A DNA stretch of 58,889 nt, the filler included. It is 7 parts of 7 records of this genome, joined end to end, with 100 filler letters (N's around TTAATTAATTAA, not from the genome) between each part and the next. Parts side by side here need not be neighbours in the genome. Positions count along the whole stretch, not along the records: positions 35,838 to 41,871 come from SRR31147125_51141; 6 more parts are not named here. One strand, written 5' to 3'. Both the position numbers and the translations under genes were made by a program. The notes beneath the pieces were generated by a model. It worked only from the letters and a program-made list of their open reading frames with translations. It was not told the DNA's origin and made no database searches. Each line of letters begins with the position of its first letter. Position 1 is the first letter of the stretch. Of the stretch, positions 3,389-50,932 are shown piece after piece.

Positions 3389-3430
3389 GTAATCCCCTGT
3401 AAAAACAATAAATGATCTCGCAGGGATTTT

Positions 3431-3446
3431 AGCAATTTTGATGCCA
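3431..3446 (-). promoter_or_regulatory. sigma54 (-24/-12) promoter
   Basis: Minus strand TGGCATCAAAATTGCT: GG-N10-GC matching TGGCAC-N5-TTGC, about 40 nt upstream of the ATG at 3388. Confidence 0.7.
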
Positions 3447-3644
3447 GTTTGCAGGAGTTCGTGCAGATATCTGCCAGCAATGAAATCATATGGGTGATTT
3501 CATTGCTGTATATAGGAAGTAGAATGGTATTATATAAAATTTTTCTGGAAAATTGTAGAATAATAGCTTCTTACTCTATGTGTTTCCTGATGATTCGTAA
3601 TGTTCTGGCAGATATTTCCGGCAGAAACCTCGATTTCGGCTGTT

Positions 3645-5231
3645 TTATATATTATCGTCTAGTAGCGATATAATGATTTTGTGTTTGAGCGGCTTGGCAA
3701 TAAATTCTCTTATGCCGAGCTTATTCAAAGTTTCCAGTTTAGAAATATCGTTGGTGCCGTAACTTGTTATTACATATATTATAAGTTCCGGATTGTCAGT
3801 CAGGAGTTTTCTGATGATTTTTTCATCGTCCTGGGCGGCAAGAAAGTAATCAATAAATATAGTCTTTATCTCGTTGCTGTGTTCTGAATATGTGAGCCAG
3901 GCTTCAGTATTATCAATGGTTGTAATTACAGATCTGGAAGGAGTACTTATGATGTCTTCCAGCAGGATACGGTTGAGTTTATTATCATCAATTACCAGAA
4001 TCGTCTCCATTTCTGTCTCTTGAGATTGCTCAATGTTTATACTCTGGGTTTCAGCACTTTTTTTCTCACTTGGAAGGATAATTGAGACTGTAGTGCCTTT
4101 TTCAAACTGGCTGTCAATTTTGATTTTACCGTTATGGTTTTCTATAATCCCGTAGACTGCAGCAAGGCTCATCCCTGCACCGAGACTCAAGTCTTTGGTT
4201 GTGAAGAATGGGTCAAAAATTTTATCCAGATTTTCCTTTTCGATACCACCTCCTGTATCTGTGATTGTTATATTGAGGTAATTCCTGCTTGTGTTTGTTG
4301 TCGCAAAGTATACAGGATCTTCGCCGTCTATTACCTCATCTTCAAGAAGAAAAGTCAAGGTGGCATTACTCTTGTCAGTCATTGAGTCGAGTGAATTGTT
4401 GACTATTTCCTGAATAACGTTTTCAATCTGCATATAATCACCCAGAACAACAGGGTTGGCAGCTTTGAATTCCTTTATAATTTTAACTTCAGGGTGATCG
4501 TGCTGGAGAAGTTTCTCAATTGTGTTGATAATCAATTCAACATTAATTTTGCTATTTAGATATTTTCCCTTGCCGGCAAAAGCAAGAAGTTTGCTGGTAA
4601 GTTTTGAGCAACGCTGGCCACACTGAATAATCAGATCGGAGAGTTTATGAATTTTTTTATCTTCTGTCTTATCTTTTATCAGATCAGAAAATCCGATAAT
4701 ACCATTGAGCTGGTTATTGAAGTCATGAGCAATCCCTCCTGCAAGCAGGCTGAGAGATTCTATCTTCTGTGCTTTTACCAAGCGCTGCTGAGTTTCGTTC
4801 AGTTCTTCCTGCTTGAAGATAAAGCGTAGCTGATTATAAATTCTTGCCAGTAGAGTTACACTTGAGAAAGGCTTGGTGATATAATCATATCCTCCAGCGT
4901 CAAAACTGGTAAAGAGAGTTTCATCATCTGTTTTGGCTGTGAGAAAAATTACTGGGATATGAGCTGTCTCATCTTTGTCCTTGAGTATTTTACATGTTTC
5001 TATACCATCAAGATCAGGCATCATGATATCAAGAAGTATCAGGTCGGGTTTTTCCTGTTCAGCGATATTTATGCAGTCTTTTCCTGACTGGGCATAAAGT
5101 AGTACAAATCCTTCCGGTGCAAGAATAGATGCAACAATTTCAATGTTAGCTGAAACATCATCGACTATCAGGATTTTCGCCCGTCTCTTGGTGTCGCTTT
5201 TTATCTTGTTGAATTTAAGTCTATTTATCAT
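3645..5231 (-). CDS. hybrid histidine kinase (REC-HisKA-HATPase-REC)
   Basis: N-terminal REC ([22 protein letters not shown]); H-box [15 protein letters not shown] and [10 protein letters not shown]-terminal REC. Confidence 0.92.
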
Positions 5232-8200
5232 TATTATCCCTGTCAGGTAAAAATAGTTTTATCGTTTTCATGATATCTGGAAGTTTGAAGGTTGCTATGT
5301 AGTGTTCCAGTTTTTTTGCAATGACTGTTAAGTTATTATCGCCGATTTTTTCAGCAAAAGCAATAAACTCTTTGGCTATTTTTTCTGCTTCCTCAAGTAT
5401 CATCCCGTGCTGCAGTGATTTAAACTTGTCTTTGAATTTTTCATATACTGCGTTCTTGATCTCATCAGAGACTATGAGTTTTGTTTCATCTTCACGCAGG
5501 AAGGTGCGGGTTTTGCGCTTTTCCTTTTGAGGAAGGTATTTTTCCAGTATAGTGGTGAAATCTTCAAGTGTAAGCGGGATTACAGCTATTTCATCATACA
5601 GCATAATGTTAAAGATTTCTTCAGGTCTGGGATTACTGGTTATGGCAATTATTGGTAAATCGTCATACAGCGGGTTTGCTCTTATTCTTTCTGGTAGAGT
5701 ATTTGCATCCGCTGCTGTGCGGGTTAATGCATTGATCACAATATCGTATTTGTCAGTGCCTAGTCTTTCAGTTGCTTCATCAACGGAATTCACATTGGTA
5801 TAAGTCAGGTTGAGTTTATTCAGAACATTATCGATTATGTTCAATTCCTGGTGTTGTCTGGAAATAACTACCAGGATATTAGCAGGGTTGAAAATAACCA
5901 GTTCTTTCTGAGTATTCTCTATTTGTTTAACAACTTCTTCTCCTGCTTTGAGCTTATGGATAACTATAGTAAACTTACTACCTTTATTAGGAGTACTGTT
6001 GAGTTGTATTTCACCATTCATAAGCTCTACCAGACTTTTGAAATACTGAGTCCTAGTCCTGAACCCTGATATTTTCGATTACTATTGCTTTCTACTTGTT
6101 CAAATGAATGGAATATTTTCTTCTGTTCTGCAGGGCTGATACCTATACCAGTATCAGAAACAGAAATATTCAGATCATATTCTGTATGACCTTTCTCAGA
6201 AAATTCTCTTACTGTTGTTTCAATGTCTATATTGCCTTTCTGTGTAAATTTGACCGCATTGCCAATTATGTTGATTAGAACCTGTCTAAGTCTGTCATTA
6301 TCCAGAATAAGAGGTGGAATATTCATTTCATTTTTGAAGTTAAGATCAATTTTTTTACTCTTCGCTTTTGCACTGAAAAGAGAATTCATATCTTGAAGTA
6401 AATCGCCTATTCTTGTTGTGTTGTTATTGAGAGCTAGTTTATTTGCTTCCAGACGTGAGAAATCAAGCACATTATTGATCAGGCTTAAGAGGCCTTTGGC
6501 AGCTGTATTGATAGAGTGTGCATAAGAACCTGAATTGGTTCCGAGTTCTTCATACTGCAGAAGGTCAGAGAAGCCGATTATGGCATTGAGCGGTGTACGG
6601 ATTTCATGAGTCATGGTAGAGAGAAATGTACTCTTTGCCTTATTAGCTGTTTCTGCTCTCTGATAGGCTTCTTTCAGGTTGGTCTCAATCTCCTTCATTT
6701 TAGAGATGTCAGAGAATGTCTTTACAAAGTGGGTAATTGAATTATCTTTGTCGCGGATAATATTGGTTGAGGCAAGGAGTTCCTTGTTTTTGTAAGTTAT
6801 CGATTCAACATAGGCATTTTTATTAATATTATTTAAGTGGTTAATCTGGCACTTTTCGCAGATATCCTTCTCTGTATGAAATACCTCATAACAGGCTTTA
6901 CCAATAATCTTTTCCGGATTACATTCAAACATATCTCTGGTAGCTTCATTTACCCAGATAATTTTGTGTTTATTATTGAGATAGGCAACAGATTCCTTGA
7001 TGCTGCCGAGAATAATGCGTTTTTGTTCTTCACTTGCTTTGAGCTCTTTCTGGATGTGGTACAACTCTGTTATATCAAGTACTGCTCCACTGCTATGAAT
7101 CCAGTTACTTGATTGATCATAGGTATTGCTGATAAATATTTTGAGAGTCTTAGTCTTATTATCTTTTGAAATATGTAATTCCTGCTCATAATTGTCAATA
7201 TAAGTGTTTGTTGATGATTCAAAGAAGTTATTGAATTTGTTTTTATCCTGAAAACCGACATTGATAAATAATTCATCAAATAAAATATTATCAGTAATAT
7301 TATTGTCGAGCATGAACATGTCTGCGACTTTTTCATCGCAGCTCAGCTTACTGGTATCAGGGAAGTACTCCAGATATGCCAGCTTGGCAAGATTGTAAGC
7401 CTGTTCTATCTTTTCATTGGCTATCTGCTTCTCTTTTTCAGATTCAATTGCATTGGTTACATCAATTCTTACACCGAAGATTCGGGTAAGGTCTCCTCTA
7501 CTGTCTTTTTCGCTCAGAATATCTGCACGTTTATAGCGTATTTGCTCGTCTGTATATATTTTATAGTTTATGGTAAAACGATGGATTTTCTTGTCCATCA
7601 GTTCCTGCCAGTTGTCACTGATTGTTTCCATATCGCTCTCAACTACATTGAGAAATATGTCTTTGAGGTTGAAAGTCTTCTCGGTAATATACAGGCAGGA
7701 CTCTTCATTGCCGCTACTGACAAGGATTTTATTGTGTTTTATATCATAGGTGAAGTATGTGACTCCGGCAAGACTGATCGCATTGCTTAGTAGTGTCTTG
7801 GTCTGGCTCAGTTGGCGCTTATAGATTGCTTCAGCTCTGATATCTTTAAAGATCAGGACAACACCGATAAGGTTGTCGTTATCCGGTTCTTTGATTGGTG
7901 TGGCTGTGGCATTGATAGGTATTTCGTGATAGTAATTGTTTATCAGGGTTATATTCTGCTGCAGGCTTAAAGCTTTGTTGGTTTGCAGAACTGTCTGTAT
8001 AGGGTCTGGAAATTCTTCGCCCGAAGTGGAGCTGTAGAGGGTAAACAGATTATTGGTATAATGCCCGACAACATCTTTTTCTTTGACATTAAGCAGTTCT
8101 TCTGCAACTGAGTTCATCTGCATGATCATTCCGGTGACATCAGTAGCAATCATGCCTTCACCGATTGAATGCATTGTTGCATTGAGCCATGATTTTTCTT

Positions 8201-11970: not shown

Positions 11971-12070
11971 NNNNNNNNNNNNNNNNNNNNNNNNNNNNNN
12001 NNNNNNNNNNNNNNTTAATTAATTAANNNNNNNNNNNNNNNNNNNNNNNNNNNNNNNNNNNNNNNNNNNN
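11971..12070. other. artificial contig spacer
   Basis: N44-TTAATTAATTAA-N44 (stops in all six frames). Confidence 0.98.
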
Positions 12071-25437: not shown

Positions 25438-25537
25438 NNNNNNNNNNNNNNNNNNNNNNNNNNNNNNNNNNNNNNNNNNNNTTAATTAATTAANNNNNNN
25501 NNNNNNNNNNNNNNNNNNNNNNNNNNNNNNNNNNNNN
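25438..25537. other. artificial contig spacer
   Basis: N44-TTAATTAATTAA-N44. Confidence 0.98.
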
Positions 25538-30622: not shown

Positions 30623-30722
30623 NNNNNNNNNNNNNNNNNNNNNNNNNNNNNNNNNNNNNNNNNNNNTTAATTAATTAANNNNNNNNNNNNNNNNNNNNNN
30701 NNNNNNNNNNNNNNNNNNNNNN
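30623..30722. other. artificial contig spacer
   Basis: N44-TTAATTAATTAA-N44. Confidence 0.98.
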
Positions 30723-32531
30723 CCTCTTGATATCCGCACCGACCACCCGCGGGACATTCGCCTCGCCATCAGACACGACGACCACGAGCGGGACGATCTG
30801 TGGCTGCTTCTGTCTGGCAATACGGACAAGCTGCCCGGCCCTGAACAAGCCATCTGCTAATGGGGTCGCGCCACCTACGGTGAGTTGTCGCAAACGCTGT
30901 TGCGCCAAAGAAACACTGGATGTTGGCGGCAGCAGAACATCCGCCTGCTGGCCTCTAAAAGAAACCAGAGCGACCTGGTCCCGTTGCTGGTAAGCCGTCA
31001 ACAGCCAGCCGAGGATCGCTCCCTTGGCGGCTTTCATTCTTTCGATGGTGCCCTGCCCCATGGAATCGGAGGCATCCACAACAAAGACAATCAGCGTTTT
31101 CTGCTTTTTTCTGAAAACTTTCTGTCGCAGATCCTGCTTTTCCAGGCGCTTGAATGAGAATTCAGATCTTTGACGGATAAAACCTGCAACCAGGCTCGCA
31201 CCATAATCCAGCCTGACCCCAGAGTACTGGTGACCCAGTGGCACACTGCGCACATGACGACCAGAGCGCGTATCGCGCTGCAAACGTTTTGAACGCCCAC
31301 CCTGCGGATGCGAAAGGTGTCCCACTTTGAAATTAAGAGGCGCAAGACAGAGGTCGTCTGCGATGTTGATCAGCCGTTCAGAAGTTTTTTTAAAGGTCTC
31401 AAACAGCATGCTGCCTGCGGCAGCCGCTCCCGGAAATTCAAAATCAGCAAGCGGCCCCAGAGACTCCGCGTCAAGGCCGGCATCACAATCCTCACCTTGA
31501 TTCGGTTTATGCTCGCTGAGTGCATGACTCAGAGTCTTTTCAGCCTGTTCCGCATCCATCAGAATTCCACCGGGCAACCGGTGCAGCAGAACCAGCCGGG
31601 CAACCTCGGCCAGTTCAACCGCCGTCACCTGTTCTTTGTCCATGAGCGCCGCCAGGGCACGGGCGGCTTTCAGAAGAGCCAGATCCGCACGGTGGCCCTG
31701 AACTTTCAGCTGCAGCGCCAGTTGGACCGCCATCGCCAGGGCAGCATCGGAAAGGACAACCTGCTCCAGAGCGTGACGAGCCGTTGCAATCTGTGTTCTA
31801 AGGAAATCATCCTGAGCGCTCCATTCAGCGACGAAACGCTGCGGGTCCTGCTCAAAAGCAAGCCGCCTGCGTATCAGCTCTGTGCGCTGTTCCGGGCCAG
31901 TCACCCCCTCAACTGTGACCATCAGACCAAAGCGATCAAGGAATTGCGGACGTAACTCGCCCTCTTCAGGGTTCATCGTACCGATGAGCATAAAGCGGGA
32001 GGGATGAGTGATGCAGAACCCGTCCCGTTCGACCCGGTTGATCCCCGATGCAGCGGCATCCAGCAGGAGATCCACCAAGTGATCTTCAAGCAGGTTGACT
32101 TCATCGACGTAGAGAATCCCACGATTGGCCGTGGCGAGCAGGCCGGGTTCGAAATGGCGCGCTCCCCGCTTCAGGGTCTCTTCCAGGTGGACACTTCCGG
32201 CAACACGATCTTCCGTTGCTCCTAGAGGGAGTTCAACCACAGGAGTCGGGATTGTGATTTGATCGATTTTAGAACCGGCTTCGAGGCTTTCTCGACAGGC
32301 ATCATGCATCTGGTTCGGACGATCGGGAGGGCAATGGTAAGGACAGCCATCAACGGCTGTCAGCTGCGGAAGCAAGCTTGCCAAAGCACGCGCCGCCGTT
32401 GACTTCGCTGTCCCCTTCTGGCCGCGGATCAGCACGCCGCCGATGGTCGGATCGACGGCATTCAACAGCAGTGCAGTTTTCATCGCCTCCTGTCCGACAA
32501 TGGCACTGAAAGGATAGAGCGGTTCATTCAT
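30723..32531 (-). CDS. ChlD/BchD-like chelatase subunit (ChlI-like AAA+ plus vWA), 3'-truncated
   Basis: YPFSAIVGQ, GQKGTAKST, LYVDEVNLL, GTMNPEEGELRPQFLDRF; vWA FVVDASDSM, GGATPLADGL, SDGEAN. Confidence 0.9.
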
Positions 32532-32546
32532 AGGATGTCACCCATG

Positions 32547-33802
32547 TCAGGGCAGGGCCTCCGCAACCAGATCGAGAATGTGAACAGCCCGCTGTTTGCC
32601 ATCGGCGTGGTTAATACTGTCCTGAAGCTGCATAATGCACCCGGGACAATCGGTCGCTACCAATCCGGCACCGCTGTCTGCAATCGCGGTCGCTTTTTTG
32701 GCCCCGATCGTTTTAGCCGTGTCGTAATGATACACGGAGTAAGTCCCGCCCAGACCGCAGCAGCTGGCAGCATTCTCCATTTCGACATAGTCGACCTGTG
32801 GCAGCGCTTTGAGGACTTGTCTCGGCTCTTTAGTAATGCCGTGATTGCGAAGGTGGCAGGGATCATGGTAGGTGACTTTAATCGGCCTATCCGCTTTGGG
32901 AAGTTCGTTCAACTTATCAACAAAACCCTGCTCAACGAGATAGACGAAGATATCCCTGACCTTGTCTTTATAATCACCGATCTCCCCATCCATTCCCGGA
33001 TAAACCTGAGTCAGGCCCGAGTGACAGGAAGCACAGGCAGTGACGACAGTATCGTACTCGTAACGGGAGAGCATCTCGAGGTTCTCAGCCGCGAGGCTTT
33101 CAACCGTTTCGGTCGCCCCGGAGGAGACCGCCGCAAACCGCAGCAGACTTGTGATTTGGGAATGAGAACATTGACACCAATAAATTTCAGCGCCTTCAGC
33201 AAAGCTTCCCCGCTGTCCGGATACATGTAATTGATCCCACAGCCAGTAAAAAACAGAACCGTCGGTTGCCCGTCTTCCCCCTTGATGAATTCCGGGTGAC
33301 GCTCACGGAACGGCTTGCTGGCTACCGGAGGCAGGGTTCGATCAGAACTGATAAAGGGAGCTGGGAAGCGCAGTTTCATGCCGCTGTTGTCGGGCAACTT
33401 CTTGAACAACAAACTGGAGAGCTTGCCCCCCGTTTTCGCCAAAGCATTCATCAGGTTCTGATGCTTGAGCACGGTCGAAACACCGAATCCGAAGGTCGAC
33501 AACCCTTTTCGCGCGGCAATCTCACGCCGGGTCGCGGCGACAATCTCCTCGGTCGGCACCTTGTTCGGACATTGAGAATAGCAGCTGCCACACAGCAGGC
33601 ACTGAGACATATCGAGCAGGAATTTATCTTCGAGATCGATGTCCCCCTTCAGCAGAGAATCCGCCAGGGCAATCTTTCCACGCGCGACACGCCCCTCGTG
33701 CTTCACAGCGCCGAAGGCCGGACAGTGCGCCCGACAACAACCACACTTGACACACTGATCGATGACGTCGCGATACTCTTCAAGTTTTTTCAGTTTAGCC
33801 AT
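32547..33802 (-). CDS. glcF: GlcF-like Fe-S/CCG-domain subunit (one indel at about 33134)
   Basis: CVKCGCCRAHCP, CLLCGSCYSQCP, FFTGC, CCG, ACASC, YHDPCH, CCGLGG, DCPGC; adding one C restores CCGLPAVSSG. Confidence 0.85.
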
Positions 33803-33823
33803 ATCTATGAAACCTTAAACCTG

Positions 33824-34012
33824 TAGCCACGAAGACTCTAAGAACACCAAGAAAAACACAATCAAAGGCTTTTGACGGAGAGACGAAAAGACACAGAGAA
33901 AAGCATTTTTCAGGATTTAAAACCAAATAAATGATTTTGATTTACCCTCTGCGAACTCTCCACCTCTGCGTTAAAAAGGCCTTTCTTTGAGTTCTTTGTG
34001 TCTTAGTGGCTA
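33824..34012. repeat. 189-bp nested imperfect inverted repeat with 9-nt periodic units (REP/MITE-like)
   Basis: Left arm TAGCCACGAAGACTCTAAGAACACCAAG vs reverse complement of right arm TAGCCACTAAGACACAAAGAACTCAAAG; inner pair GACGGAGAGACGAAAAGACACAGAG vs AACGCAGAGGTGGAGAGTTCGCAGAG. Confidence 0.8.
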
Positions 34013-34019
34013 TCGGATT

Positions 34020-35405
34020 TTAAACATCACTGGGGAACATTTTCCCCGGGTTGAGTATGTTTTTCGGGTCCAGGGCTTTCTTAATCGTCTTCATATAGTC
34101 GACAGCCGTATTCGCCAGCTCAAGCGGAATATAGGGAGCCTTCATAATCCCGACGCCATGCTCACCACTCATGGTCCCGCCCAGATCAAGAGCTTCCTTA
34201 AAAACCGCCTCAATCGCTTTTTCGGCCTTTTCAGACTCACCCTCGACCTTGCTGTCGATCATGATATTGACATGAATATTACCGTCGCCCGCATGCCCGA
34301 AGTTAACGATCGGAACATCGTAAGTGTCGGCGATTGTGTCGATCCGGCGAATCATTTCCGGAACCTTGGACCGGGGAACACAAATATCCTCATTGAACTT
34401 GTCAGGATTCACCCGGCGCAGTGATGCGGACACGCTGCGACGGATCTGCCACAGGGCCTCACTCTCTTCCGGTGTTTCCGCGATGCGGGTTTCGACAACG
34501 CCCAGAGGCTGTACGATATCCGAAATCTTCCGGGCCTGTTTATCGAGAAACTCCTTGTCCCCATCAACTTCAATGATCAGAACCGCCCGCGCGCTATCGG
34601 GAACCTCCAGACTGGTCGCCTCGCGCACACAATCGAGCGTCCGGCCATCCATAAATTCCAGGGTGGTCGGAATGATTTTGTTCTTGATAATGGCCGAGAC
34701 CGACTGCGCGGCACCATCAATGGAATCGAACAGAACCAGCATGGTCTTTTTGGCTTCCGGTTTCGGTAACAGCTTGACGATGATCTTGGTGATGATCGCC
34801 AGAGTACCTTCCGAGCCGCAAATCAGCTTGGTCAGATCGTAGCCGACAACACCCTTCATCGTCGGGCCACCGGTCTTGATCACATCCCCGGTCGGGGTAA
34901 CGATCTCCAGACCGATGATGTAGTCCTTGGTGACACCATACTTCACGCAACGTGGGCCACCGGCACATTCGGCCACATTACCGCCGAGGGTCGAAAACTT
35001 CAGGGATGCCGGATCGGGTGGATAGAACAGGCCGACCTTCTCGACCGCCTTCTGAAAATCTTCCGTAACGATCCCCGGTTCAACCGTCGCAACGAGATTT
35101 TCTTCATCGATTTCGAGGATGCGATCGAGCCGGGTCGTGACCATGACGATCCCTCCGTCCACCGGCAGGCTGCCACCGGTAAAACCACTGCCGGCACCGC
35201 GTGGAAAAACGGGGATTCCCGTCTCATTGGCCAGCGTCATGACCTGGCTGATCTCCTCCGGGCTGCCCGGATGGACCACAACATCGGGAAGAAACTGTTT
35301 CTGAGTCGCATCGTAGGAATAGCAGATCAAGTCCGCCTTTTCCGTAGACGTATGATCCGCTCCGACGATCTCTGCTAAACGTTGAAGATGCTGCTCTGCA
35401 ATCAT
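34020..35405 (-). CDS. glcD: GlcD-like FAD-linked 2-hydroxyacid oxidase
   Basis: PRGAGSGFTGG, YPPDPAS, GGNVAECAGG, KYGVT, GSEGTL, GHAGDGNIH, SGEHGVG, LNPGK. Confidence 0.92.
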   Translation of the reverse strand: MIAEQHLQRLAEIVGADHTSTEKADLICYSYDATQKQFLPDVVVHPGSPEEISQVMTLANETGIPVFPRGAGSGFTGGSLPVDGGIVMVTTRLDRILEIDEENLVATVEPGIVTEDFQKAVEKVGLFYPPDPASLKFSTLGGNVAECAGGPRCVKYGVTKDYIIGLEIVTPTGDVIKTGGPTMKGVVGYDLTKLICGSEGTLAIITKIIVKLLPKPEAKKTMLVLFDSIDGAAQSVSAIIKNKIIPTTLEFMDGRTLDCVREATSLEVPDSARAVLIIEVDGDKEFLDKQARKISDIVQPLGVVETRIAETPEESEALWQIRRSVSASLRRVNPDKFNEDICVPRSKVPEMIRRIDTIADTYDVPIVNFGHAGDGNIHVNIMIDSKVEGESEKAEKAIEAVFKEALDLGGTMSGEHGVGIMKAPYIPLELANTAVDYMKTIKKALDPKNILNPGKMFPSDV

Positions 35406-35737
35406 GGTTCACTCTTTCAATCGAATTTGAGTTTTATCAGCGCCTGAAAACAACGATTCTATTGGAACACCGAACAACGGATGAGGTCAACAGAAACACC
35501 CGAAATATGGTTATAAATTCGATAAGTGGTTGCTGCGCCACATTGGCCGTTCAGAGGACAAGATACGACCAAGGCCACAAATCAGAAGACTTGTGGCCCA
35601 TGGTTGACAGTATTTAAGAAAACAATCAATCCGACTAGAAGGGGATCTCATCGTCCGGGTTGAACGCCGGCTCCTCAAAACCACCAGACTGCTGATTATT
35701 CTGCTGACCAGCCTGTCCACCCTGAGGGTTGGACTGA

Positions 35738-35837
35738 NNNNNNNNNNNNNNNNNNNNNNNNNNNNNNNNNNNNNNNNNNNNTTAATTAATTAANNNNNNN
35801 NNNNNNNNNNNNNNNNNNNNNNNNNNNNNNNNNNNNN
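35738..35837. other. artificial contig spacer
   Basis: N44-TTAATTAATTAA-N44. Confidence 0.98.
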
Positions 35838-36882
35838 AAAAGACAGTACGTTGTTTTGTATTAAGTTTATTATAAAATTCATATAGTCCTTCAGGGGTTC
35901 CTGCATATGGCATTGCAGTATTACCAACCGCTTGAATAATATGACCTCCTCTTGTTGTTATATCCTGAATAGTTTGTATCCCTCCTACATATATATCCGG
36001 GGATAACGTGGCTAAAACACCATATACTTTCTTTCCAATATCCAAGTCTTTTGATATATTTTTACATTCTACCGACAATTCAAGCGTTTGCTTATCAAGA
36101 TCATTAATAAGTTTTGGACTGCTAATATCAATATTCTTATCCAATTTGGATTGGATACCGTCTCTCTTTATAAATGCAATAAGATACAATGCTTGCCCCT
36201 CAAAAAATGCTAATAATCCTGGATTGATTTTCACAAAAAAAGTTTTATTTTCCCAGTCATATCCATAACTTTTGATAGGTTGTGGCTTTGCAAACTCAAC
36301 ATTTTCTATATCAAGCAGTAATATGGTTACGAGTTTTTTTTCTTCATTGACATCTTCTTTTTTTGTTTTAATTGATGCCATATGAACTACAACTGGAAGA
36401 TAACTTTTATTACGCAGTGTAGTATTGGTATGTTTATGGTTAAAAGTTATAGGAACACGCGCTATTGCTTTTTTTGATAGAGCAATTTCTCTAAGCATTC
36501 GGTCATGATCCGTTTTAAACTTTTCATAATTTTTGGGGTGCATCATATCTTTAAAAAGCTTATATAACTCTTCGGCTGATTTTTTATTTAGCCGTTTGCT
36601 ACTCTGGCACAGTCCACATATCGCATTAATAGTTGGACTACACTTTATAATTATATTCTCTTTAAGCGTGTCATTTTTAGTAGTTACCTCGTAAATTAAA
36701 ACCGGATGATCCGAATTATATTGCCAGAATTTCTCAACTACATCTTCGGGTTTGATTAAATACTCTTTTAAATTGAACCTTGAAACTCCTGGTAAATCAA
36801 CTTTTATTCCCCATGCTGTTATAGTTCCTCCAGCAATCAATAAAACTAAGCAAGTCGCGACAATGCCAATAAGTTTTGCCAT
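35838..36882 (-). CDS. AT-rich hypothetical membrane-anchored protein (3'-truncated)
   Basis: ORF of at least 348 aa, RBS GAGGTG, N-terminal hydrophobic helix, no recognised motif. Confidence 0.75.
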
Positions 36883-37223
36883 TTTATCACCTCATATTTT
36901 TGGTAGCGCCTGCGTTTTTCTTTTGAATGATTTCTATTGAAAGCAGAATCAAATAATTATCCAGATTTATCTTGAAAGTAGAATGATATCCAAAGTTAGC
37001 GTTATTGGAGAATACCAATATAATATAGGGCGTTGCAAGGGGGATTTTTATACCTTGAACTCATTCCACCACCTGGAGAACCTCCTGGGGAAAACCACTT
37101 TACCCAGTCAGTGGGAGGCGGGGATCAGAATCTTGACAACCTTTCGGGCCGTGACCGAGCAGTCAGTCAAATATCCGCTGTGTCAAAATTGAGGGGATTT
37201 TTGCGATGATGCCGGTCAGCCGC

Positions 37224-37276
37224 CAGGTGGGACCGGATCCCCCTGGGGACCGGATCAGGTGAAATCGGATCCCCCT
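37224..37276 (+). repeat. 21-bp imperfect direct repeat
   Basis: CAGGTG-GGAC-CGGATCCCCCT (37224-37244) and CAGGTG-AAAT-CGGATCCCCCT (37256-37276), with an extra GGGACCGGATC between. Confidence 0.7.
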
Positions 37277-37701
37277 ATAGGCGCCTTAGAAAAGCGCTCA
37301 TAAGGGATAACAGCTATTGCTGTCAGTTCCACCAATAATTCCGGGTCAACAAGACCTGCCACTTTTACGCCAGTTACCGCGGGCCCTGTGGATTTTTTAA
37401 ACCTCCTGATCCTTTCATTTTGGATATCTTGGAGATCTTCATCCCTGACGTAATACATTGTCATAGAGACAACGTCACCAAGCTGGCCACCAAGTTCTGC
37501 AAGTATTTTTATGATGTTATCTATAGCGCACTTCGTTTGCTGACCTGCATCATTTCGTCCAATAACATTTCCATTACGATCCCAAGCCACTTGCCCTGTA
37601 AGATGCACACTTTTCCCCTCTGGTTCGACAACCGCCTGGTTGAATGGGAATTGATTATCGGCCCATACCTTATCTGGATTGATTCGAATTGTATTCACCA
37701 T
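37255..37701 (-). CDS. RidA/YjgF/UK114 family protein
   Basis: FNQAV, VHLTGQVAWD, QTKCAIDNI, PAVTGVKVAGLVDPELLVELTAIA. Confidence 0.88.
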   Translation of the reverse strand: MVNTIRINPDKVWADNQFPFNQAVVEPEGKSVHLTGQVAWDRNGNVIGRNDAGQQTKCAIDNIIKILAELGGQLGDVVSMTMYYVRDEDLQDIQNERIRRFKKSTGPAVTGVKVAGLVDPELLVELTAIAVIPYERFSKAPIGGSDFT

Positions 37702-37917
37702 TCACTCTCCATCTGGATTAAGCGTTCTAATCATACCCCTCCCCTGGTTCAATCAGCCGGGCCCTGCAGGAAATGTTCCAATTGTTACCCCATTTCTTCG
37801 GCCCCGTATGTGCTGACCAATGCGGTTCTCCCGAGCCGCATTGGTCAAATACCAGGAAGGACCCGTCAACAACCTGACCAATAAATATCATGCCCCCGTC
37901 CACCTGGCGCCAGTCAT

Positions 37918-38235
37918 CTATGATTGACCCAGCCGCCCAACGATCCCCACAAGATCCGTTCCGAATACCCCGTCAATGATCGCAATCAGGATCCCGCCGC
38001 TGATGATCAGGGCGGGCACACCAAGGATCATGGCCCAGACAAAGGCCATACCCAGGCTGGTAATAAGTTCAAAGGTTAAACCGACCTCACTGCAGAATTG
38101 ACCTATCTCCCCTGGCTTCACGGTACCGGTTACAAACCGCCCCCATACCTTACCTATCAAGGCCAGGCCGGAAATGAACATGATTAAACCCATGAGCATG
38201 AAGGGGGATAATAAAGCAATGGTGGCGGTGTCCAT
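37918..38235 (-). CDS. small hypothetical membrane protein
   Basis: 105 aa, strong RBS AAAAGGAGG, two long hydrophobic segments. Confidence 0.65.
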   Translation of the reverse strand: MDTATIALLSPFMLMGLIMFISGLALIGKVWGRFVTGTVKPGEIGQFCSEVGLTFELITSLGMAFVWAMILGVPALIISGGILIAIIDGVFGTDLVGIVGRLGQS

Positions 38236-38580
38236 GAATCCTCCTTTTGATCCCTTGCCCGGGATCCGGACAGGGCGGTGAATGTGTCAAGGTGGCCAGG
38301 TCTTCCAGAATGGATAGAGTATTCTTAACCCTGTGTATCTGATCCTGGCTTTTATTTCAACCTGGATCGGTACGGGACCGGTGCCCTCCTGCCTGGTCCA
38401 GGACCACCCGCTCGACCTGTCTTGCCACGACTTCCTTCGCGCCCTTCTCCAGCTCACCCACCAAGGGGATCCGGCTTGGCCCCTGGACACCCCCGCCCTT
38501 ATCGCTGACACTGCCGGCTGAATCCAATTCCCTACCTGGCCGCCGAACGGGCCGGGCTCATTGAATGTCAGGAAAAATCA

Positions 38581-39072
38581 ATGGCAATACCAGAAGCATG
38601 CGGCCTTTGGATTGAGCAGAGGCTTAAAGAAGAAATCGAGGAAACCGGGGACACCATGAAAAGTGTCCGCTCCATTGCTCGGGATGTAACGGACGAAGTG
38701 AACCGGGTTTTTGAAACCAATATCAATGTTGAGACAATCAAATCACGGGCTTTGAGAATAAAGAACCAGGGTGGTTCAAATGAACCAGAGGTCCCAACCG
38801 CCCAGAATGATGAGAAAAATAGCGGGGTACAGGGGGGTACGAAAATCACCCCTAAGGAAGCTGCGCCTATGGTCGAGGAAAAGGTGGCCGAGGGTAAATC
38901 CAAAAGGCAGGCCAGAAAAGAGGTGGCTGCAAAAACCGGCCTGAAAGAAAACTCTGTAAAGGTCGCCCACCAGCGCGCAGAAAAAGAAGAAAAAACCGGA
39001 ACCGTACTTCAACCCGGTTTCTATCATGAAGCCGGGCAGAGGCAAAGCACCGGGCGGATATCTCCCGGTTAG
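38581..39072 (+). CDS. phage-like hypothetical protein, possibly DNA-binding
   Basis: 163 aa, RBS AGGA; two HTH-like segments (KSVRSIARDV..., GKSKRQARKEVAAKTG). Confidence 0.65.
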   Translation: MAIPEACGLWIEQRLKEEIEETGDTMKSVRSIARDVTDEVNRVFETNINVETIKSRALRIKNQGGSNEPEVPTAQNDEKNSGVQGGTKITPKEAAPMVEEKVAEGKSKRQARKEVAAKTGLKENSVKVAHQRAEKEEKTGTVLQPGFYHEAGQRQSTGRISPG

Positions 39073-39128
39073 CACCCCCGGACAGTTCCTCCTTGACAAT
39101 GCCATCCTACCCGTGTCAAATAATCACC

Positions 39129-39176
39129 GTCACGGCAAATTCCGTGACCCGGTTTGACATCCGGAACATCAACAGG
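39129..39176 (+). promoter_or_regulatory. c4 a1/b1 target element
   Basis: Hairpin GTCACGG-CAAATT-CCGTGAC, then CCGG-TTTGACAT-CCGG (a1 TTGACATC, 39154-39161) and b1 TCAACAGG (39169-39176); both complementary to the C4 RNA loops. Confidence 0.85.
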
Positions 39177-39222
39177 CGCATGAACGTCAAGCTATAGTTG
39201 TACTCTCTTTCTGATTTCAACT

Positions 39223-39297
39223 TGGCGGGTCATGTGCGGGGGTTCGTCCCCACCGGTCTCCTGTTGAGCCGGGATGTCAACCGCATGTGACCCGCCA
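39223..39297 (+). ncRNA. c4: C4-type antisense RNA (P1 C4 / P4 CI class)
   Basis: 17-bp closing stem TGGCGGGTCATGTGCGG / CCGCATGTGACCCGCCA; UUCG hairpin; CCGGT/GCCGG hairpin exposing b' CCTGTTGA (39260-39267); unpaired a' GATGTCAA (39273-39280); ends in CCA. Confidence 0.88.
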
Positions 39298-39304
39298 TTT
39301 TTGT

Positions 39305-39348
39305 TTGACATCAAAGACGGCGGTGTTCTTATAACCATCTTCAACAGG
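39305..39348 (+). promoter_or_regulatory. c4 a2/b2 target sites overlapping the downstream RBS
   Basis: a2 TTGACATC 39305-39312; b2 TCAACAGG 39341-39348 overlaps AGGA upstream of ATG 39362. Confidence 0.85.
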
Positions 39349-39361
39349 AACACTTGAACGA

Positions 39362-39481
39362 ATGCAGAACTCTACCTCAGACCAGTACGTTACCAGCACC
39401 CGCCCCGTTCACCCCAACGGCTCATTGACCACCACCACCCCCATGCAGGCCCGGACCTGGAAAGGGGGCCCCGAATGTTAA
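39362..39481 (+). CDS. 39-aa ORF in the icd/kil position (below the ORF-track cutoff)
   Basis: MQNSTSDQYVTSTRPVHPNGSLTTTTPMQARTWKGGPEC; its stop overlaps the next start (ATGTTAA) and it carries the purine-rich RBS of the next gene. Confidence 0.55.
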   Translation: MQNSTSDQYVTSTRPVHPNGSLTTTTPMQARTWKGGPEC

Positions 39482-39843
39482 TCAAAAAAGAACAGATCCT
39501 GTCCGATTCAGATCCGCTTTTCTTGACCTGCCATCCCCTGGGGAAAATTCAATTCATCACGAATGTATTTCTTGAGAATCCCGACCCCGGCCAGAGCAAC
39601 ACTATGGCCGCCATGGAGATCTTGGAGGATGCCAAGGCTGAGATCGAATTCATTATTGACGCCTGTAATGAACGATGGGCAAAGGATCATGCAGAGCTTG
39701 AACGGCTCCGGAAAGAAAACGCCGGATTGAAAGAGCAGCTGAGTCAGCACAACCGGCTTGACACTGAGGTGGCCCCGTCTATTGAATCCCCCAGGCGGCC
39801 TGCGCCATGCAGGAAGGTTTGCCCCTGCCCGGTTCATGCCTGA
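39475..39843 (+). CDS. hypothetical coiled-coil protein downstream of the C4 cassette
   Basis: 122 aa, RBS GGAAAGGGGG, ELERLRKENAGLKEQL heptads, followed by a terminator. Confidence 0.7.
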   Translation: MLIKKEQILSDSDPLFLTCHPLGKIQFITNVFLENPDPGQSNTMAAMEILEDAKAEIEFIIDACNERWAKDHAELERLRKENAGLKEQLSQHNRLDTEVAPSIESPRRPAPCRKVCPCPVHA

Positions 39844-39869
39844 CACGGCTGTAGCCTGATATGAATTTC

Positions 39870-39905
39870 AAAGCCTTAGGCGTTTGCCTGGGGCTTTTTG
39901 TTTTT
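39870..39905 (+). terminator. intrinsic terminator
   Basis: AAAGCCTTAGGC-GTTT-GCCTGGGGCTTT followed by TTGTTTTT. Confidence 0.8.
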
Positions 39906-40315
39906 GGGGAGTATGCCAGACCTTGAAAATATAAAAGATAGCCTTACCTTACTATATAAGACACCCCACTTTTGTCAGACTGGAGCGCTAATAATAATTG
40001 AGAAGTTTTTTTTGTTATTTTTTGTGATTCGAAATTTGGAACAAAAAAGAGAAAGAGGCGCTTACTGTCGGAGGTAAATTCTCAGTTGTTATTAAAAACG
40101 GGTGGGATCAGCTATCACGGTTGGTCCCACCCTATAATATAGGCAGAAAGAATCTATATTAATATCTTGTCTTTTCAGAGATGCGGAAAGAGGCCATTTG
40201 GTAATGTATATTCCTTCTTCTTCAACAGAAAGGGACCACTTTCATATATTGTGGTGGGGCTTCTGCTCAAAATCTAAGGCATATTAACCAGGATTGGTTT
40301 CATGAAATAAGCGGA

Positions 40316-40729
40316 TTAAATAAGTAGTTGCCGATATGTTTTCCTTTTTCTGTTTCGTTTTTTTGCTTCCTTTTCTTCGTGTATAGCAAGGTGGCATTCT
40401 CTACAAAGAACGGTTAGGTGTAAAAATTCTTCGTTGCCAAGTGTATTATATGAATTGTGGTGTACATCAAGCTTTTCACGTTTGCCGCATCTTTCACACT
40501 TGTAATCTGACTCTTTTAGTTTTTCGATTCTCTTAGTTTTCCAGGCGTCTGATGATAAATATTTGTCATAGTCAATCCATCCATCTTTTCTGAGAAAGGT
40601 GGGGTCCACTCCTTTGGCTTTATTAATCTCTGCTTTCTTCTGGTATTTTTTTTCATTCACTTTGGCTCTGGCTGTTGCTCTGGCTTTAAGTAGGTTTAAA
40701 TCTTTTTTCGATAATGTCTTTTTAGGCAT
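40316..40729 (-). CDS. HNH endonuclease
   Basis: YLSSDAWKTKR, CERCG, LDVHH..Y, LTVLCRECHLAIH. Confidence 0.88.
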   Translation of the reverse strand: MPKKTLSKKDLNLLKARATARAKVNEKKYQKKAEINKAKGVDPTFLRKDGWIDYDKYLSSDAWKTKRIEKLKESDYKCERCGKREKLDVHHNSYNTLGNEEFLHLTVLCRECHLAIHEEKEAKKRNRKRKTYRQLLI

Positions 40730-40788
40730 GGTTTCCGAAACCTCATATGGAGTTTGACTGCTGTCTGAAAATCAAGAATATTGCGGTT

Positions 40789-41143
40789 TTAACCAACGGG
40801 GGAAATATCAATCTCCAATTGATTAAGTGAGTAAAATTTATTTAGTTCCAAGGATCATTTTTTGCTCTAAATACTTTATAAATCAAGCTATGAATGCGCC
40901 CGTATAATCTTTGGAAAAAGCAATTAAAAATAAGAAAGGAAGAAATAAACAAGGAAAACAAACCAAGCCATGGATTTAGTATATCAGGGATTTTTTTTGA
41001 TTAAGAACAAAATCAATATATTCTTGAGGAGCAAAGAATAGAAATAAACATGGAACCAACATAGAAAGAAGTACCCATGGATGATATATCGAAGCCATTA
41101 TGTGGTTCATTAGTTCTTTTAATGGGTTAACGAATTTTATCAT
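40789..41143 (-). pseudogene. SieB-like superinfection-exclusion membrane protein, frameshifted and apparently truncated
   Basis: Adding one A at 40991-40998 gives MIKFVN..LLSMLVPCLFLFFAPQEYIDFVLNQKKIPDILNPWLGLFSLFISSFLIF..FYSLNQLEIDISPVG; two-TM pattern resembling SieB. Confidence 0.5.
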
Positions 41144-41765
41144 ATTTCTTTTGCCTTCTTTGAGCCATGAACCGCATAGCTACAATTTTACCTCCTTATC
41201 TAAATAAATGGAATATTTAGCCATTAAGAAGGCTTCAGATACTAATGAAAATCAACTTTGTTGGAGAATACCTCTACAATCCAAATATTGGCAAGAGATA
41301 ATTTTAATACCTTGAAATCTTGCCCCACTGGCAAGGACGGGGGAGACCAGCAAATAAAAAGATTAATAACGGATTGCCCAGACCCTGGCCCTGGTTATAC
41401 CTTGTCCCTCTGCCCGGCCATGAAGCCACCCGGAAGGATCCAGAGCAAGGGGTCGGGGTGAGCCAGGGGTATATCCTCTCTGACACTGCCCTCCCTGGTC
41501 TGTCACCATAGCATTGTCCACCTTACAGGGGTATGATGATCTGGCCCAGGTGGTGGCCATGCCGGCCGGCTGCCGTGTCAGAAAAATATGGGCATTGGCT
41601 GTAGGGCCTCACCCTTTTTCTGTATTATTGTTGTGGAATGCCCAGGTAGAGATAAGCCAGATGCACCCGATTATAATCCAGCAAGCCTGGCAAGGAATAA
41701 AAGAAATAACAGCATGGTTATCGTTTGGGTTATGGAAGTCTCCAGGTGACATAGATGGACCAGGT

Positions 41766-41838
41766 GGTACACTATAGGTACACCCGTCTTTTCCAAAAAC
41801 AAAACAGCCTGTCAGGATTTCTCCTAACCGGCTGTTTT
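41766..41838. promoter_or_regulatory. att-associated direct repeats and hairpin
   Basis: GGTACAC at 41766 and 41777 (11-bp period); 17-bp inverted repeat AAAACAGCCTGTCAGGA / TCCTAACCGGCTGTTTT (41801-41838) just downstream of the tRNA CCA. Confidence 0.6.
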
Positions 41839-41844
41839 TATTAA

Positions 41845-41871
41845 TGGTACCGAAGAGAGGACTTGAACCTC
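41845..41871 (-). tRNA. tRNA 3' fragment (T-arm, acceptor strand, CCA), probably tRNA-Leu; cut by contig edge
   Basis: Minus strand GAGGTTCAAGTCCTCTCTTCGGTACCA; the TCGGTACCA end is typical of Leu tRNAs; anticodon not visible. Confidence 0.8.
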
Positions 41872-41971
41872 NNNNNNNNNNNNNNNNNNNNNNNNNNNNN
41901 NNNNNNNNNNNNNNNTTAATTAATTAANNNNNNNNNNNNNNNNNNNNNNNNNNNNNNNNNNNNNNNNNNNN
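41872..41971. other. artificial contig spacer
   Basis: N44-TTAATTAATTAA-N44. Confidence 0.98.
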
Positions 41972-46002: not shown

Positions 46003-49000
46003 TCATAGTCCATCAAAGACAGAAGTCTCTTTTTCCGGTACATTCACGAATGACTTGATCAAACACAACTTGCCATTTCTTGCATGATAGACACCCTGGC
46101 TCTGGAAATTTCGGATTACATATTCGGCCCATTCCATGCAGGTTCCCTGTGTGCCTGTTAAAGGAGTGGCCCGATGGATGAAAGATCAAGGGTCATAGGG
46201 TAAGACTCACTGGCCAAACAATACAATTTTTTTGCCTGCCAGGGTTCCAGCCCAAGTCGGGTCAATTGAGGCCATAAGTCAACCTCACCTCCCGATGTCT
46301 CAAATGCAGGTAAACCTGCCCGGCCGGAAACCTTGTGTCCGGGTTTATCATAATCACCAAAAACAGGGCCATGAATAATCACCACATCCGGTCTGTAAGC
46401 TCTGATAGCAGCCACCATATGTCGAACGACATTTTCTTCACCTTCCCACAACCTTTCGGTAAAATGATAGTAATCACACCCATTATTACCATTTTCAAAT
46501 TCGTTAAAATTGGAGCTGGTGCGTACGCCTGACATCCATACGTCCCGATCATGCTCCAGGTTATAGGTTTCTTCATACTCACTGCTATGGACATCACCCA
46601 TCACACCCACATCGACAATTTGTTTACCTTCATTCATCGTATAATGGGCTAAAAACGCATTCAGATTAATGGGCGAATCATCACCGTGGGCCAGCAGGAC
46701 CATCACATCACTTTTTGGCGCATTTCCATGCAGCACCTGCCAGTTAAATCCCTTGTTTTCTGAACGTAATACTTTCTCACGTTCACCTACAGCAACAATC
46801 CGACCTTCCGCATCAGCCCAGACAGATCGTAACCAATCCGTGTTTGTTATTGGGCGTAACGCCCAGCTTTTGCCACCATCTTCTGTCACCATCATCTGCG
46901 TACCTAATTCACCAACCGCATAACCGGATGTAGGGGTGACAAAATGAATACTTCTCAGATCCAGTAATTCCCTTATTTTTGCATCAAGAAACGTGGCTGT
47001 CGGCTTCCAGGTCTCGCCACCATCATGGGAAATAACAATGGAACCATTCTGGCCTACAATACAACCGGTAGCGCCTTCAAAGGTCACGTCCAAATAAAAC
47101 GGCCGGAATTGATAAAACTTTCTATCTGCTGCCGCATCCATTTTTGTCCAGGTCAAACCGCCATCCGATGTTTTTATGACAATCTCTGACTCACCCACAG
47201 CGACACCAAAAGACTCGTCTCTAAAGTCAATTCCGTATAACCATCTTTGGGTACCTGTAGTGGCCAGCATGCTCCAGTGTTGACCACTGTCCACTGTTTT
47301 TAATAAAAAGCCTCGTTCTCCAACGGCATATCCTGTGTGCTCATTAACAAAAGCCAGTCCAAATAAGTGCCGACCCCGTTCACCATATTGGCATTCCCAC
47401 GTTTTCCCACCATCCATAGTATGAAATATATACCCATAGCCGCCACGTTTATCATGCTGCATATCTTCGTTCTTAACAGCCATGCGAATGCGGCCACCAG
47501 CAGCCCAACCTTCCTTTGAATTGACAAAACAGACACGGTAAAGGTCAACATCGGCCTGAATATCCACAAACTGCCAGCTTTTTCCACCGTCTTCTGATCG
47601 TAAAATGGTTCCCATGGCACCGACTGCCCAACCTTTATCGCCAATAAACTGAACATCCATCAAGGGATATCCACCCTTTGCCGGATGTTCAAAAGCGTGA
47701 AAATGGTCCTGTACATCGATCGTACCAAGCTCATGATCAACTTTCTCCAGAATCTGTTGACAACGAACAAGTTCATTAATCGAATTGTACTTTAATCTGT
47801 TAATCTGCCCGACTAATGATGCGATTAATTTTTTATGCTTTTTAGAATAGGATTTTAATCTCTCCTGCATGGAAACGACTTTACGCTGCACACCGGGTTT
47901 TATAGCAGCCACAGCATCTATACGGATATGTGCCATATTTCCCAGGGTTGCGGGATTGAGGTAATCACCGGCTGTGTACAACCAGGTCTGCAGCTCTGTT
48001 TTTCGTTGATCTGCTATTTCGAACACCCTGTTCCTGAAAATATTCAATCCCCAAATGTCACCACAGCCAACAGGCACATCAAGGGAGCTCAATGGCAGCA
48101 TAATCTCAACACCCCATCCGCTTGCTGTATTAAAAAGATCAACTGTTCCGTCTGGTTGCCAGCTACGATCGGGAGCGCCAAATTGGTCATATTGTATACC
48201 ACCCAATTCACCTCGATTATTCACTGTTATCAAATAATACTTTTGATGAATAGTGTCTAAATTCGGATCGCGTGGCTGAACAAGTAACCAAAAGCCTTCA
48301 TGAGCATATAAAGCATCATCCTTAAAGACTCCATTCACACCTGCCATTTGCCCATGCATACCCTTGCCTGTTACTTTTGTATCCGTTAAACCCGGATCCA
48401 TTTTTGCGCCATCTGCTTCCAGGCAAAAACACAGGACATTGTCCTTAAAGCCGACTTTTGCTTGTGCGATATCCTTGTTCAACTGGACACCCATGCGATC
48501 AGTATGGTCAATCCTGGTCCAGGCCGATTTCTCCCATATCCTATTGTCTGATTTACTATTAATCGCAGGCATTTTTTCCAATTCCACAACAGGAAAAAAA
48601 TCATCTAAAGAGGTCGCTCGGATTTTCGGTTTTATTTCCTTCATAAATTCCGGACGGGGCCAGTAATATTCAACAAGTGGGTCACGCCGAACCATAATGC
48701 CTTGTTCAACGGTAACACCAATTTGTGGCTTACAAAGTTGAACTTTATGCCTCGAATCAATATAACTGGCATGTAAAAAATCACATTTCCAAGTCCAGCC
48801 CGGATTTGATGAATGATCCAGACCTGAAAAAGGAATGACCATTTCCACAAACCATTGATTTCCTTTTCGCAACGTAGCGACTTTGGCATGAGAGTTCCAG
48901 GAAGAGAAAAAATAACCACCACCATATGGATCATAATAGGAATCCCAAACAATACCATTGGCATTAATGGCAATAGAATAATAATATTCCCGGGCCCATT

Positions 49001-50832: not shown

Positions 50833-50932
50833 NNNNNNNNNNNNNNNNNNNNNNNNNNNNNNNNNNNNNNNNNNNNTTAATTAATTAANNNNNNNNNNNN
50901 NNNNNNNNNNNNNNNNNNNNNNNNNNNNNNNN
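50833..50932. other. artificial contig spacer
   Basis: N44-TTAATTAATTAA-N44. Confidence 0.98.

Follow-up and report, generated by a model that had tools for sequence, protein, structure and literature searches.

A probable P1-type C4 antisense-RNA control cassette beside a gene with relatives in Desulfobacterales

Antisense RNAs of the C4 family, known from phage P1 (C4) and satellite P4 (CI), control gene expression by pairing with short target sites on both sides of their own coding sequence. Here we describe a member of this family in a DNA stretch of 58,889 nt (the window), on the fifth piece of the chain of contigs that makes up the window (positions 35838-41871, ~6 kb). The RNA belongs to the C4 family, both of its specificity segments find exact complements upstream and downstream, and these complementarities covary over 71 C4 loci. 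On this basis we consider it quite likely that the region 39093-39897 constitutes a complete C4-type control cassette of the kind represented by P1 immI, P4 CI and Gifsy-1 IsrK-STnc1160, and that it works in the manner of P1. Expression of the cassette, processing of its RNA and repression of the downstream genes would follow from its sequence and from the known systems.

Results

Assignment to the C4 family

The Rfam model of C4 (RF01695) matches 39218-39302 on the plus strand over its full length (model positions 1-87) with 49 bits compared to a gathering score of 45 (E = 2.1e-6) and is the only Rfam family above threshold in the window. The same model yields 68.8 bits on phage P1 and 74.9 bits on P4, so that the RNA described here is a divergent member of the family. 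The original prediction, which was made from the letters of the sequence, had recognized the architecture of P1 C4 and P4 CI in this region and suggested a comparison with the C4 model; the Rfam score, the spacing found in P1 and the covariation over 71 loci all bear this out. It had added that a track of open reading frames (ORFs) cannot see the cassette, which is true, although a routine Rfam scan does find the RNA. In a permissive scan, two leader models were aligned to the region upstream of the RNA: c4-a1b1 (RF03163) with 33.9 bits, starting at model position 12 (gathering score 46.7), and isrK (RF01394) with 35 bits, its model position 1 falling on 39129 (gathering score 50). A comparison with c4-a1b1 had likewise been suggested; both leader hairpins are in register with both models and the a1 and b1 sites are present, but the scores remain below gathering.

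The proposed RNA of 75 nt (39223-39297) folds into a structure with a 17-bp closing stem, including two G-U pairs, at -48.5 kcal/mol (z = -5.7), and none of 200 shuffled sequences was as stable. As is characteristic of C4 RNAs, the closing stem encloses two hairpins, b' lies in the loop of hairpin 2 and a' in the 3' linker, whereas a' and b' find their complements downstream in a2 and b2, the latter located at the ribosome-binding site (RBS) of the first ORF. All coordinates given originally were correct on re-reading the sequence, and the order a1-b1-b'-a'-a2-b2 with exact complements was found as described, the complements extending over 9 nt (a1), 8 nt (a2), 8 nt (b1) and 9 nt (b2). Three of the four copies of TTGACATC and three of the six copies of TCAACAGG that the window holds on both strands are located within 39154-39348. 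The sequence thus supports a P1 C4/P4 CI-type antisense cassette in which a1, b1, the RNA, a2 and b2 precede a small ORF (Table 1), and judged from it the region appears to be a genuine, ordinary member of the known family of P1/P4-type C4 antisense-RNA switches.

Table 1. Positions of the cassette features and of neighbouring features in the window
Feature	Position	Strand	Sequence	Basis and remarks
163-aa gene	38581-39072	+		directly upstream of the cassette; conserved N-terminus MAIPEACGLWIEQR...; no known function
Candidate promoter	39093-39121	+	-35 TTGACA (39093-39098), -10-like TCAAAT (39116-39121)	17-nt spacer
Leader hairpin 1	39129-39148	+	loop of GCAAAUUC type	7-bp stem; predicted folds; aligned to hairpin 1 of c4-a1b1 and isrK
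Leader hairpin 2	39149-39164	+	8-nt loop UUUGACAU	a1 in loop; predicted folds; 9-nt complement to a'
a1	39154-39161	+	TTGACATC	sequence
b1 target octamer	39169-39176	+	TCAACAGG	sequence; 8-nt complement to b'
C4-family antisense RNA	39223-39297	+		17-bp closing stem, short hairpin 1, hairpin 2 with b' loop
b'	39260-39267	+	CCTGTTGA	hairpin-2 loop of the C4 RNA
a'	39273-39280	+	GATGTCAA	3' linker of the C4 RNA
Alternative a2 hairpin	39292-39323	+		39292-39303 pairs with 39312-39323; predicted fold
U-run	39298-39306	+	TTTTTGTTT	directly 3' of the closing stem; putative intrinsic-terminator tail
a2	39305-39312	+	TTGACATC	sequence
Hairpin sequestering the Shine-Dalgarno (SD) sequence	39322-39354	+		9 bp, 39322-39330 pairs with 39346-39354; predicted folds
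b2	39341-39348	+	TCAACAGG	sequence; overlaps AGGA
ATG of first ORF	39362	+		sequence
39-aa leader ORF (orf39)	39362-39481	+		placed like P1 icd or Gifsy-1 orf45
122-aa protein (orf122)	39475-39843	+		helical, rare unnamed family; presumed regulated payload
Intrinsic-terminator-like hairpin with T-run	39870-39897	+		closes the small operon
tRNA-Leu-like fragment	41826-41871	-		contig end; blastn 84% over 45 nt to the tRNA-Leu gene region of L123

Two further hairpins were proposed at the 3' side of the cassette. The one over the RBS appears in predicted folds as a 9-bp helix in which the 5' half of b2 is in the loop and the 3' half of b2, together with AGGA, is in the 3' arm. Such a position of b2 is widespread: among the 53 loci in which both a2 and b2 could be placed, its last 4 nt form the paired 3' arm in 40, and the predicted SD hairpin is a habit of the family. 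The a2 hairpin, with the loop TTTGACAT (the same 8-nt loop as in leader hairpin 2), is predicted to be built from the 3' strand of the C4 stem and the U-run. It had been described as excluding the C4 fold. While the hairpin itself is predicted, a fold of 251 nt contains it next to the C4 structure, whose stem then has 13 bp, so that the mutual exclusion is only partial.

Spacing compared to the P1 immI region

In the annotated immI region of P1, the -35 box of P1c4 is found at 48195, a1 at 48255-48261, b1 at 48269-48276, C4 at 48343-48419, a2 at 48423-48429 and b2 at 48452-48459, followed by icd (48470-48691) and the start of ant1 at 48688. The arrangement is the same in both cases: a promoter, a1, b1, the RNA, a2, b2 and a small ORF that overlaps a second one. 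Distances in P1 and in the window cassette differ by few nucleotides, namely 60 and 61 nt from the -35 box to a1, 14 and 15 nt from a1 to b1, 77 and 75 nt for the RNA and 10 and 13 nt from the end of b2 to the start codon, which is the ATG of orf39 in the window. Both RNAs share a three-way fold in which the loop of hairpin 2 contains b' and the 3' linker contains a'. The leader hairpins of P1 have almost the same sequence as those of the window, with GTCGTAGCAAATTCTGCGAC at the hairpin-1 site in P1, and the a' cores differ at one of seven bases, whereas the b' segments are unrelated (CCUGUUGA in the window, UCACUAAC in P1). The window cassette further differs from P1 by the lack of a leader terminator, by a U-run instead of an ACC tail and by a hairpin 1 of only 3 bp. 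The first ORF encodes 39 aa without Icd-like match in the window but 73 aa in P1, and the second encodes a helical protein of 122 aa in the window but Ant in P1. P1 has the C1 operator Oc4, whereas no recognisable C1 operator was found in the window and no repressor gene on the contig. The gene that flanks the window cassette has its relatives in Desulfobacterales rather than in enterobacteria. Control by C4, Icd and Ant in P1 is summarised in PMC8201110.

Covariation of the RNA with its targets

For comparison, we collected 120 C4 loci from IMG/VR by scanning with a degenerate pattern, further loci by searching 151 genomes of the order that includes Desulfobacter latus with RF01695, and those of four genomes in which the flanking gene has relatives. 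Loci were kept if hairpin 2 had 4 bp, hairpin 1 had 5 bp and no fewer than eight of nine inner closing pairs were present; these filters also removed true members with shorter hairpins, and loci L122-L148 lie outside the scan. After de-duplication, 71 non-redundant loci were obtained, the window included. For each, we determined the longest exact complement of the b' loop or the a' linker in the 180 nt upstream and the 130 nt downstream, and as non-cognate control every RNA was compared with the flanks of every other locus.

The covariation of a' and b' with the flanks, which had been proposed as a way to examine the cassette, was strongly positive. Complements of at least 7 nt between a' and a1 were present in 68/71 cognate pairs compared to 2.5% of non-cognate ones, and between a' and a2 in 67/71 compared to 4.7%. 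For b', at least 8 nt were complementary to b2 in 47/71 (2.3% in non-cognate pairs) and at least 7 nt to b1 in 34/71 (4.4%). All four complements of the window are at or above the length typical of the family, and complements of at least 8 nt occur at only 0.5-2.3% per site between non-cognate RNAs and flanks. The helices of the RNA also covary, with double changes at 13 of 20 predicted pairs in an alignment of 51 sequences.

These results bear on the simplest alternative, in which a GC-rich hairpin is accompanied by octamer repeats that are mere coincidence. The count of TTGACATC taken over the entire 58.9-kb window fits such a view, since its four copies were equalled or exceeded in 42 of 100 shuffles. 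However, the covariance model (CM) score is above a curated threshold, the sites are confined to 200 nt in the canonical order and spacing of the family, the joint probability obtained from the per-site rates of non-cognate pairs (0.5-2.3%) is ~1e-8, and the promoter box is located at the modal distance of the family. The RF01695 score, the covariation, the promoter distance and the spacing shared with P1 effectively refute a chance origin, and its probability is negligible.

The original prediction had also assigned the cassette its own a/b specificity. The combination of a' and b' is indeed found in no other of the 71 loci, but each half recurs separately, the b' octamer in L154 and the 7-mer core of a' in L040. 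RF01695 scores above its cut-off in 7 of the 151 genomes searched in the order that includes Desulfobacter latus, and some of these 7 carry 5-8 copies. Within such single Desulfobacterales genomes, e.g. G110 with eight and G030 with five matches, the b' loops differ (L151-L170), which suggests that several heteroimmune elements reside in one genome. One C4-like RNA of this set (L170, G110:C23:11199-11270, 34.2 bits) is devoid of hairpin 2 and b' and has the same a' as the window.

Promoter, leader and 3' end of the RNA

Transcription is predicted to start near 39129. An exact TTGACA occurs 59-62 nt upstream of a1 in 25/71 loci but in only 1/70 in a control interval, and the distance of 61 nt in the window is the modal value of the family. 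Because of this conservation and spacing, we assign TTGACA at 39093 to the promoter of the cassette as its conserved -35 box, with TCAAAT as a plausible -10 element. A palindrome, TTGACA-N15-TGTCAA, had been noted in front of the cassette. This repeat exists, but its TGTCAA half is missing in all 24 relatives with a TTGACA box, and we therefore rejected an operator palindrome in favour of a -35 box with an overlapping -10 region. A second promoter candidate, TCAACA-N18-TATAGT (39169-39198), has a spacer of 18 nt and matches at nine of 12 positions. Neither P1 nor the relatives show an equivalent, and we regard it as unsupported.

An IsrK-type leader terminator, recognizable as a T5 run at most 50 nt before C4, is present in 61/71 loci and likewise in P1. 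In the window, no significant hairpin was detected in the spacer between b1 and C4 (z = 0.16). A T-run directly after C4 is a feature of 8/71 loci, i.e. the window and seven others. The CCA end ascribed to the RNA did not hold as a free 3' tail: CCA at 39295-39297 is base-paired inside the closing stem, and the U-run takes the place of the ACC tail usual in the family.

This 3' end raises the question whether the structure acts mainly in cis as a terminator or attenuator, with termination at stem and U-run, anti-termination by the a2 hairpin and only a secondary role for pairing in trans. The GC-rich 17-bp stem is directly followed by UUUUUGUUU, the a2 hairpin takes up the 3' strand of the stem along with the U-run, and the window is the sole locus (1/71) that combines a T-run after C4 with the absence of a leader T-run. 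On the other hand, the C4 fold is multi-branched, unlike a canonical terminator hairpin, and was not flagged by a terminator scan, C4 and the a2 hairpin coexist in the 251-nt fold, and four covarying target sites would be without a role in a purely cis-acting device. We regard this explanation as very unlikely.

Genes downstream of the cassette

The stop codon of orf39 overlaps the start of orf122 in the sequence ATGTTAA, from which we infer translational coupling of the two. Neither ORF matches Pfam, PHROG or NCBIfam. A word-index protein search with orf122 returned no match, whereas a later exhaustive phmmer search among 1.84 billion representatives gave eight matches with E <= 1e-3, five of them of similar length and the best with 67% identity. 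The three long matches (445, 324 and 1189 aa) were discarded, as they cover only the coiled-coil part. AlphaFold2 predicts a helical hairpin for orf122 (pLDDT, predicted local distance difference test, 78.8), and Foldseek found nothing in the PDB at E <= 1e-3. In six of nine Desulfobacterales C4 loci scanned, Bro-N, Rha or AntA domains are encoded downstream, so that the payload of the window is atypical. Our guess is that orf122 could be an antirepressor-like or other element-activating factor. Paralogues of the orf122 family also occur elsewhere: L131 (2174-3016, minus strand) and L132 carry two or three of them in tandem beside an integrase and a tRNA gene, in divergent orientation to a homologue of the 163-aa protein and with no C4.

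Contig and element context

The 163-aa gene directly upstream of the cassette shows a weak helix-turn-helix-like match (Sigma70_r4_2, 19.1 bits) below the cut-off. It has six metagenomic homologues, and all four of its matches on genome contigs are in Desulfobacterales records. We rejected the idea of an obligate partner of C4: a C4 directly downstream was found in one of six genome and viral loci (L121) and beside none of the homologues in 19 metagenome loci scanned, which are those remaining of 22 fetched loci after leaving out three that end at the homologue.

The closest syntenic relative is L121, a locus from a Desulfosarcina metagenome-assembled genome. There, a homologue of the 163-aa family (158 aa) is followed by a C4 RNA of 66.8 bits, two small overlapping ORFs and a tRNA-like fragment, and the a2-hairpin arrangement is visible as well. 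Compensatory changes are evident in that b' CCUUUGUG is combined with CACAAAGG at b1/b2 and a' UCUGUCAA with TTGACAG at a2. Over positions 1-7300, L121 appears as a small integrated element of ~7 kb with an integrase, a DnaB-like/AAA_25 helicase, a Nu1-like protein, C4 and a tRNA-like end. It also encodes a 600-aa fusion of prohead protease and HK97 major capsid protein and, judged by its gene content, looks like a capsid-encoding satellite with C4-type immunity.

The contig of the window likewise ends in a tRNA-like fragment, which matches the tRNA-Leu region of Desulfobacter latus. ARAGORN detected no complete tRNA in the window, and the fragment is probably an integration site. Between 41258 and 41800, near this fragment and next to AT-rich sequence, short ORFs overlap on both strands with no Rfam match. 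An HNH endonuclease gene (40316-40729, minus strand) is located 400 nt past the cassette terminator; its sole homologue among the fetched loci (L126, 11594-11952) lies directly after a C4-like match of 35.5 bits, which is below threshold. The cassette shares an island of 50-55% GC with a RidA/L-PSP gene (37255-37701, minus strand, 65 bits), and to the left of the 163-aa gene the contig is a mosaic in GC content.

No match to 39080-39900 was obtained by blastn in distant mode against 50,697 phage records, and a sub-lineage-specific DNA pattern gave 0 matches in viral contigs. In the window as a whole, six linkers of the form N44-TTAATTAATTAA-N44 (11971-12070, 25438-25537, 30623-30722, 35738-35837, 41872-41971 and 50833-50932) show that at least seven draft contigs are joined in it, and sequences on the two sides of a linker are not real neighbours. 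Among the other pieces, contig 30723-35737 has 49-58% GC compared to ~42% for the window overall, and one large protein of another contig shows weak partial matches in five Desulfobacterales genomes.

Discussion

The cassette combines traits of several described systems. The CI RNA of P4, whose targets are seqA and seqC, is excised from a leader transcript and base-pairs with complementary sequences on both sides of its own (PMC4825925). With P4, the window shares the position of the element beside a tRNA gene, and its relative L121 is small and satellite-sized. However, control of the replication genes in P4 relies on an untranslated leader, where transcription is terminated prematurely, whereas b2 of the window overlaps the RBS as in P1, and the protease-capsid fusion of L121 is not found in P4. 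The original prediction held the element to be otherwise unlike P1 and P4. This is true of the 6-kb contig, on which we found no P4-like genes (alpha primase, sid, psu, delta), and is qualified by the occurrence of C4 RNAs across Proteobacteria and phages: Weinberg et al. 2010 (PMC2864571) list a "c4 antisense RNA" in Proteobacteria and phages and "c4-a1b1" in gamma-Proteobacteria and phages.

Regarding isrK/STnc1160-orf45-anrP of Gifsy-1, the alignment of the window leader begins with model position 1 of isrK, which falls on the predicted start of transcription. Both systems have alternative RNA structures around the RBS and a small upstream ORF that is coupled, in the window presumably, to the regulated gene. 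By Hershko-Shalev et al. 2016 (PMC4825925), IsrK is described as a leader small RNA with terminator read-through and orf45-anrP coupling, accompanied by a downstream processed STnc1160 RNA and by homology to P4 seqA and CI. In contrast to IsrK, whose Rho-independent terminator defines a short isoform, the window has no such terminator, and its payload is not an AnrP-type antirepressor. The nearest counterparts are C4 cassettes of Desulfobacterales genomes (L149-L170) and of IMG/VR (L001-L120), which show the same promoter box, leader, RNA and targets. L121/L149 and the window moreover share the upstream 163-aa gene family and the position beside a tRNA fragment. The control of Bro-N, Rha or AntA proteins in six of the nine Desulfobacterales loci scanned differs from the unnamed family controlled in the window. 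No paper on C4 RNAs in Desulfobacterales came up, although no literature search was aimed at this question.

Based on these likenesses, we propose the following mechanism. Starting near 39129, a promoter of the sigma-70 type, whose -35 box lies at 39093, would give rise to a transcript that comprises, in this order, two leader hairpins (a1 in a loop, followed by b1), the C4 RNA of ~75 nt, a2 and b2. The C4 RNA could be set free by processing, by termination at its own stem and U-run, or by both. RNase P performs the 5' maturation of C4 and CI RNAs. Via its b' loop and a' linker, the released RNA would pair with b2 and a2 on read-through transcripts and thereby cover the RBS of orf39, and with orf122 coupled to orf39, both would stay silent. 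By analogy with P1, transcription may also stop early. The a1/b1 leader would bind the same C4 RNA and could serve as decoy or autoregulator.

Several observations weigh against such a working cassette. The RF01695 score exceeds the gathering score by a margin of only 4 bits, and hairpin 1 of C4 has shrunk to 3 bp in the CM alignment. The consensus interior of the family, which exposes b' and a', amounts to -41.2 kcal/mol, 7.3 kcal/mol short of the -48.5 kcal/mol reached by an alternative interior in which a' and b' are partly paired. No leader terminator was found, as no T5 run precedes C4 in the window, which makes a separate short IsrK-like activator RNA unlikely, and the RNA ends in the tail described above, with no unpaired ACC/CCA-like tail, unlike most members. 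The SD sequence is weak (AGGA, ~12 nt before the ATG), and neither orf39 nor orf122 matches an antirepressor or Icd family. On the 6-kb contig there are no integrase, repressor or structural/capsid genes. What lies to the left of the 163-aa gene (RidA-like, a membrane protein and unknown genes) looks like host DNA, so the cassette may sit in a remnant.

Taken further, the latter point leads to a relic under decay: what remains of an integrated element would hold a cassette that is homologous to C4 cassettes and no longer regulates. The borderline Rfam score, the shortened hairpin 1, the loss of the leader terminator, the weak SD with its long spacing, a leader ORF as short as 39 aa and a contig without integrase, repressor and capsid genes, with RidA-like and membrane-protein genes to the left and a mosaic GC content, could all be read in this way. 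Yet neutral decay should have broken at least one of the four targets, which are all perfectly complementary over 8-9 nt and so exceed the typical 7 nt of family members. Likewise, no damage is seen in the 17-bp stem, orf122 is open and 67% identical to its homologue, and on a contig this short, missing genes may lie beyond its ends. We therefore consider a relic quite unlikely and favour a functional cassette of the P1 type.

A bolder version of this function would be a rewired cassette that has lost the IsrK-type terminator and uses the C4 stem and U-run as attenuator of the operon and the a2 hairpin as anti-terminator. One fold would then act both as terminator in cis and as immunity RNA in trans, and the payload, from a previously unnamed helical family of ~100-125 aa, would represent a new kind of antirepressor in tRNA-integrated elements of Desulfobacterales. 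This scenario is unlikely.

With respect to its mechanism, the cassette described here leaves the known picture unchanged: the RNA is already picked up by a standard Rfam scan, and records of the family in Proteobacteria and phages go back to 2010. What the finding would add is an extension of the P1/P4-type RNA immunity module to a mobile element whose flanking gene has relatives in sulfate-reducing Desulfobacterales. The geometry of leader and promoter, which is almost that of coliphage P1, would illustrate the portability of this module, and the rare, unnamed small helical protein encoded downstream is a candidate for a new antirepressor-type payload.

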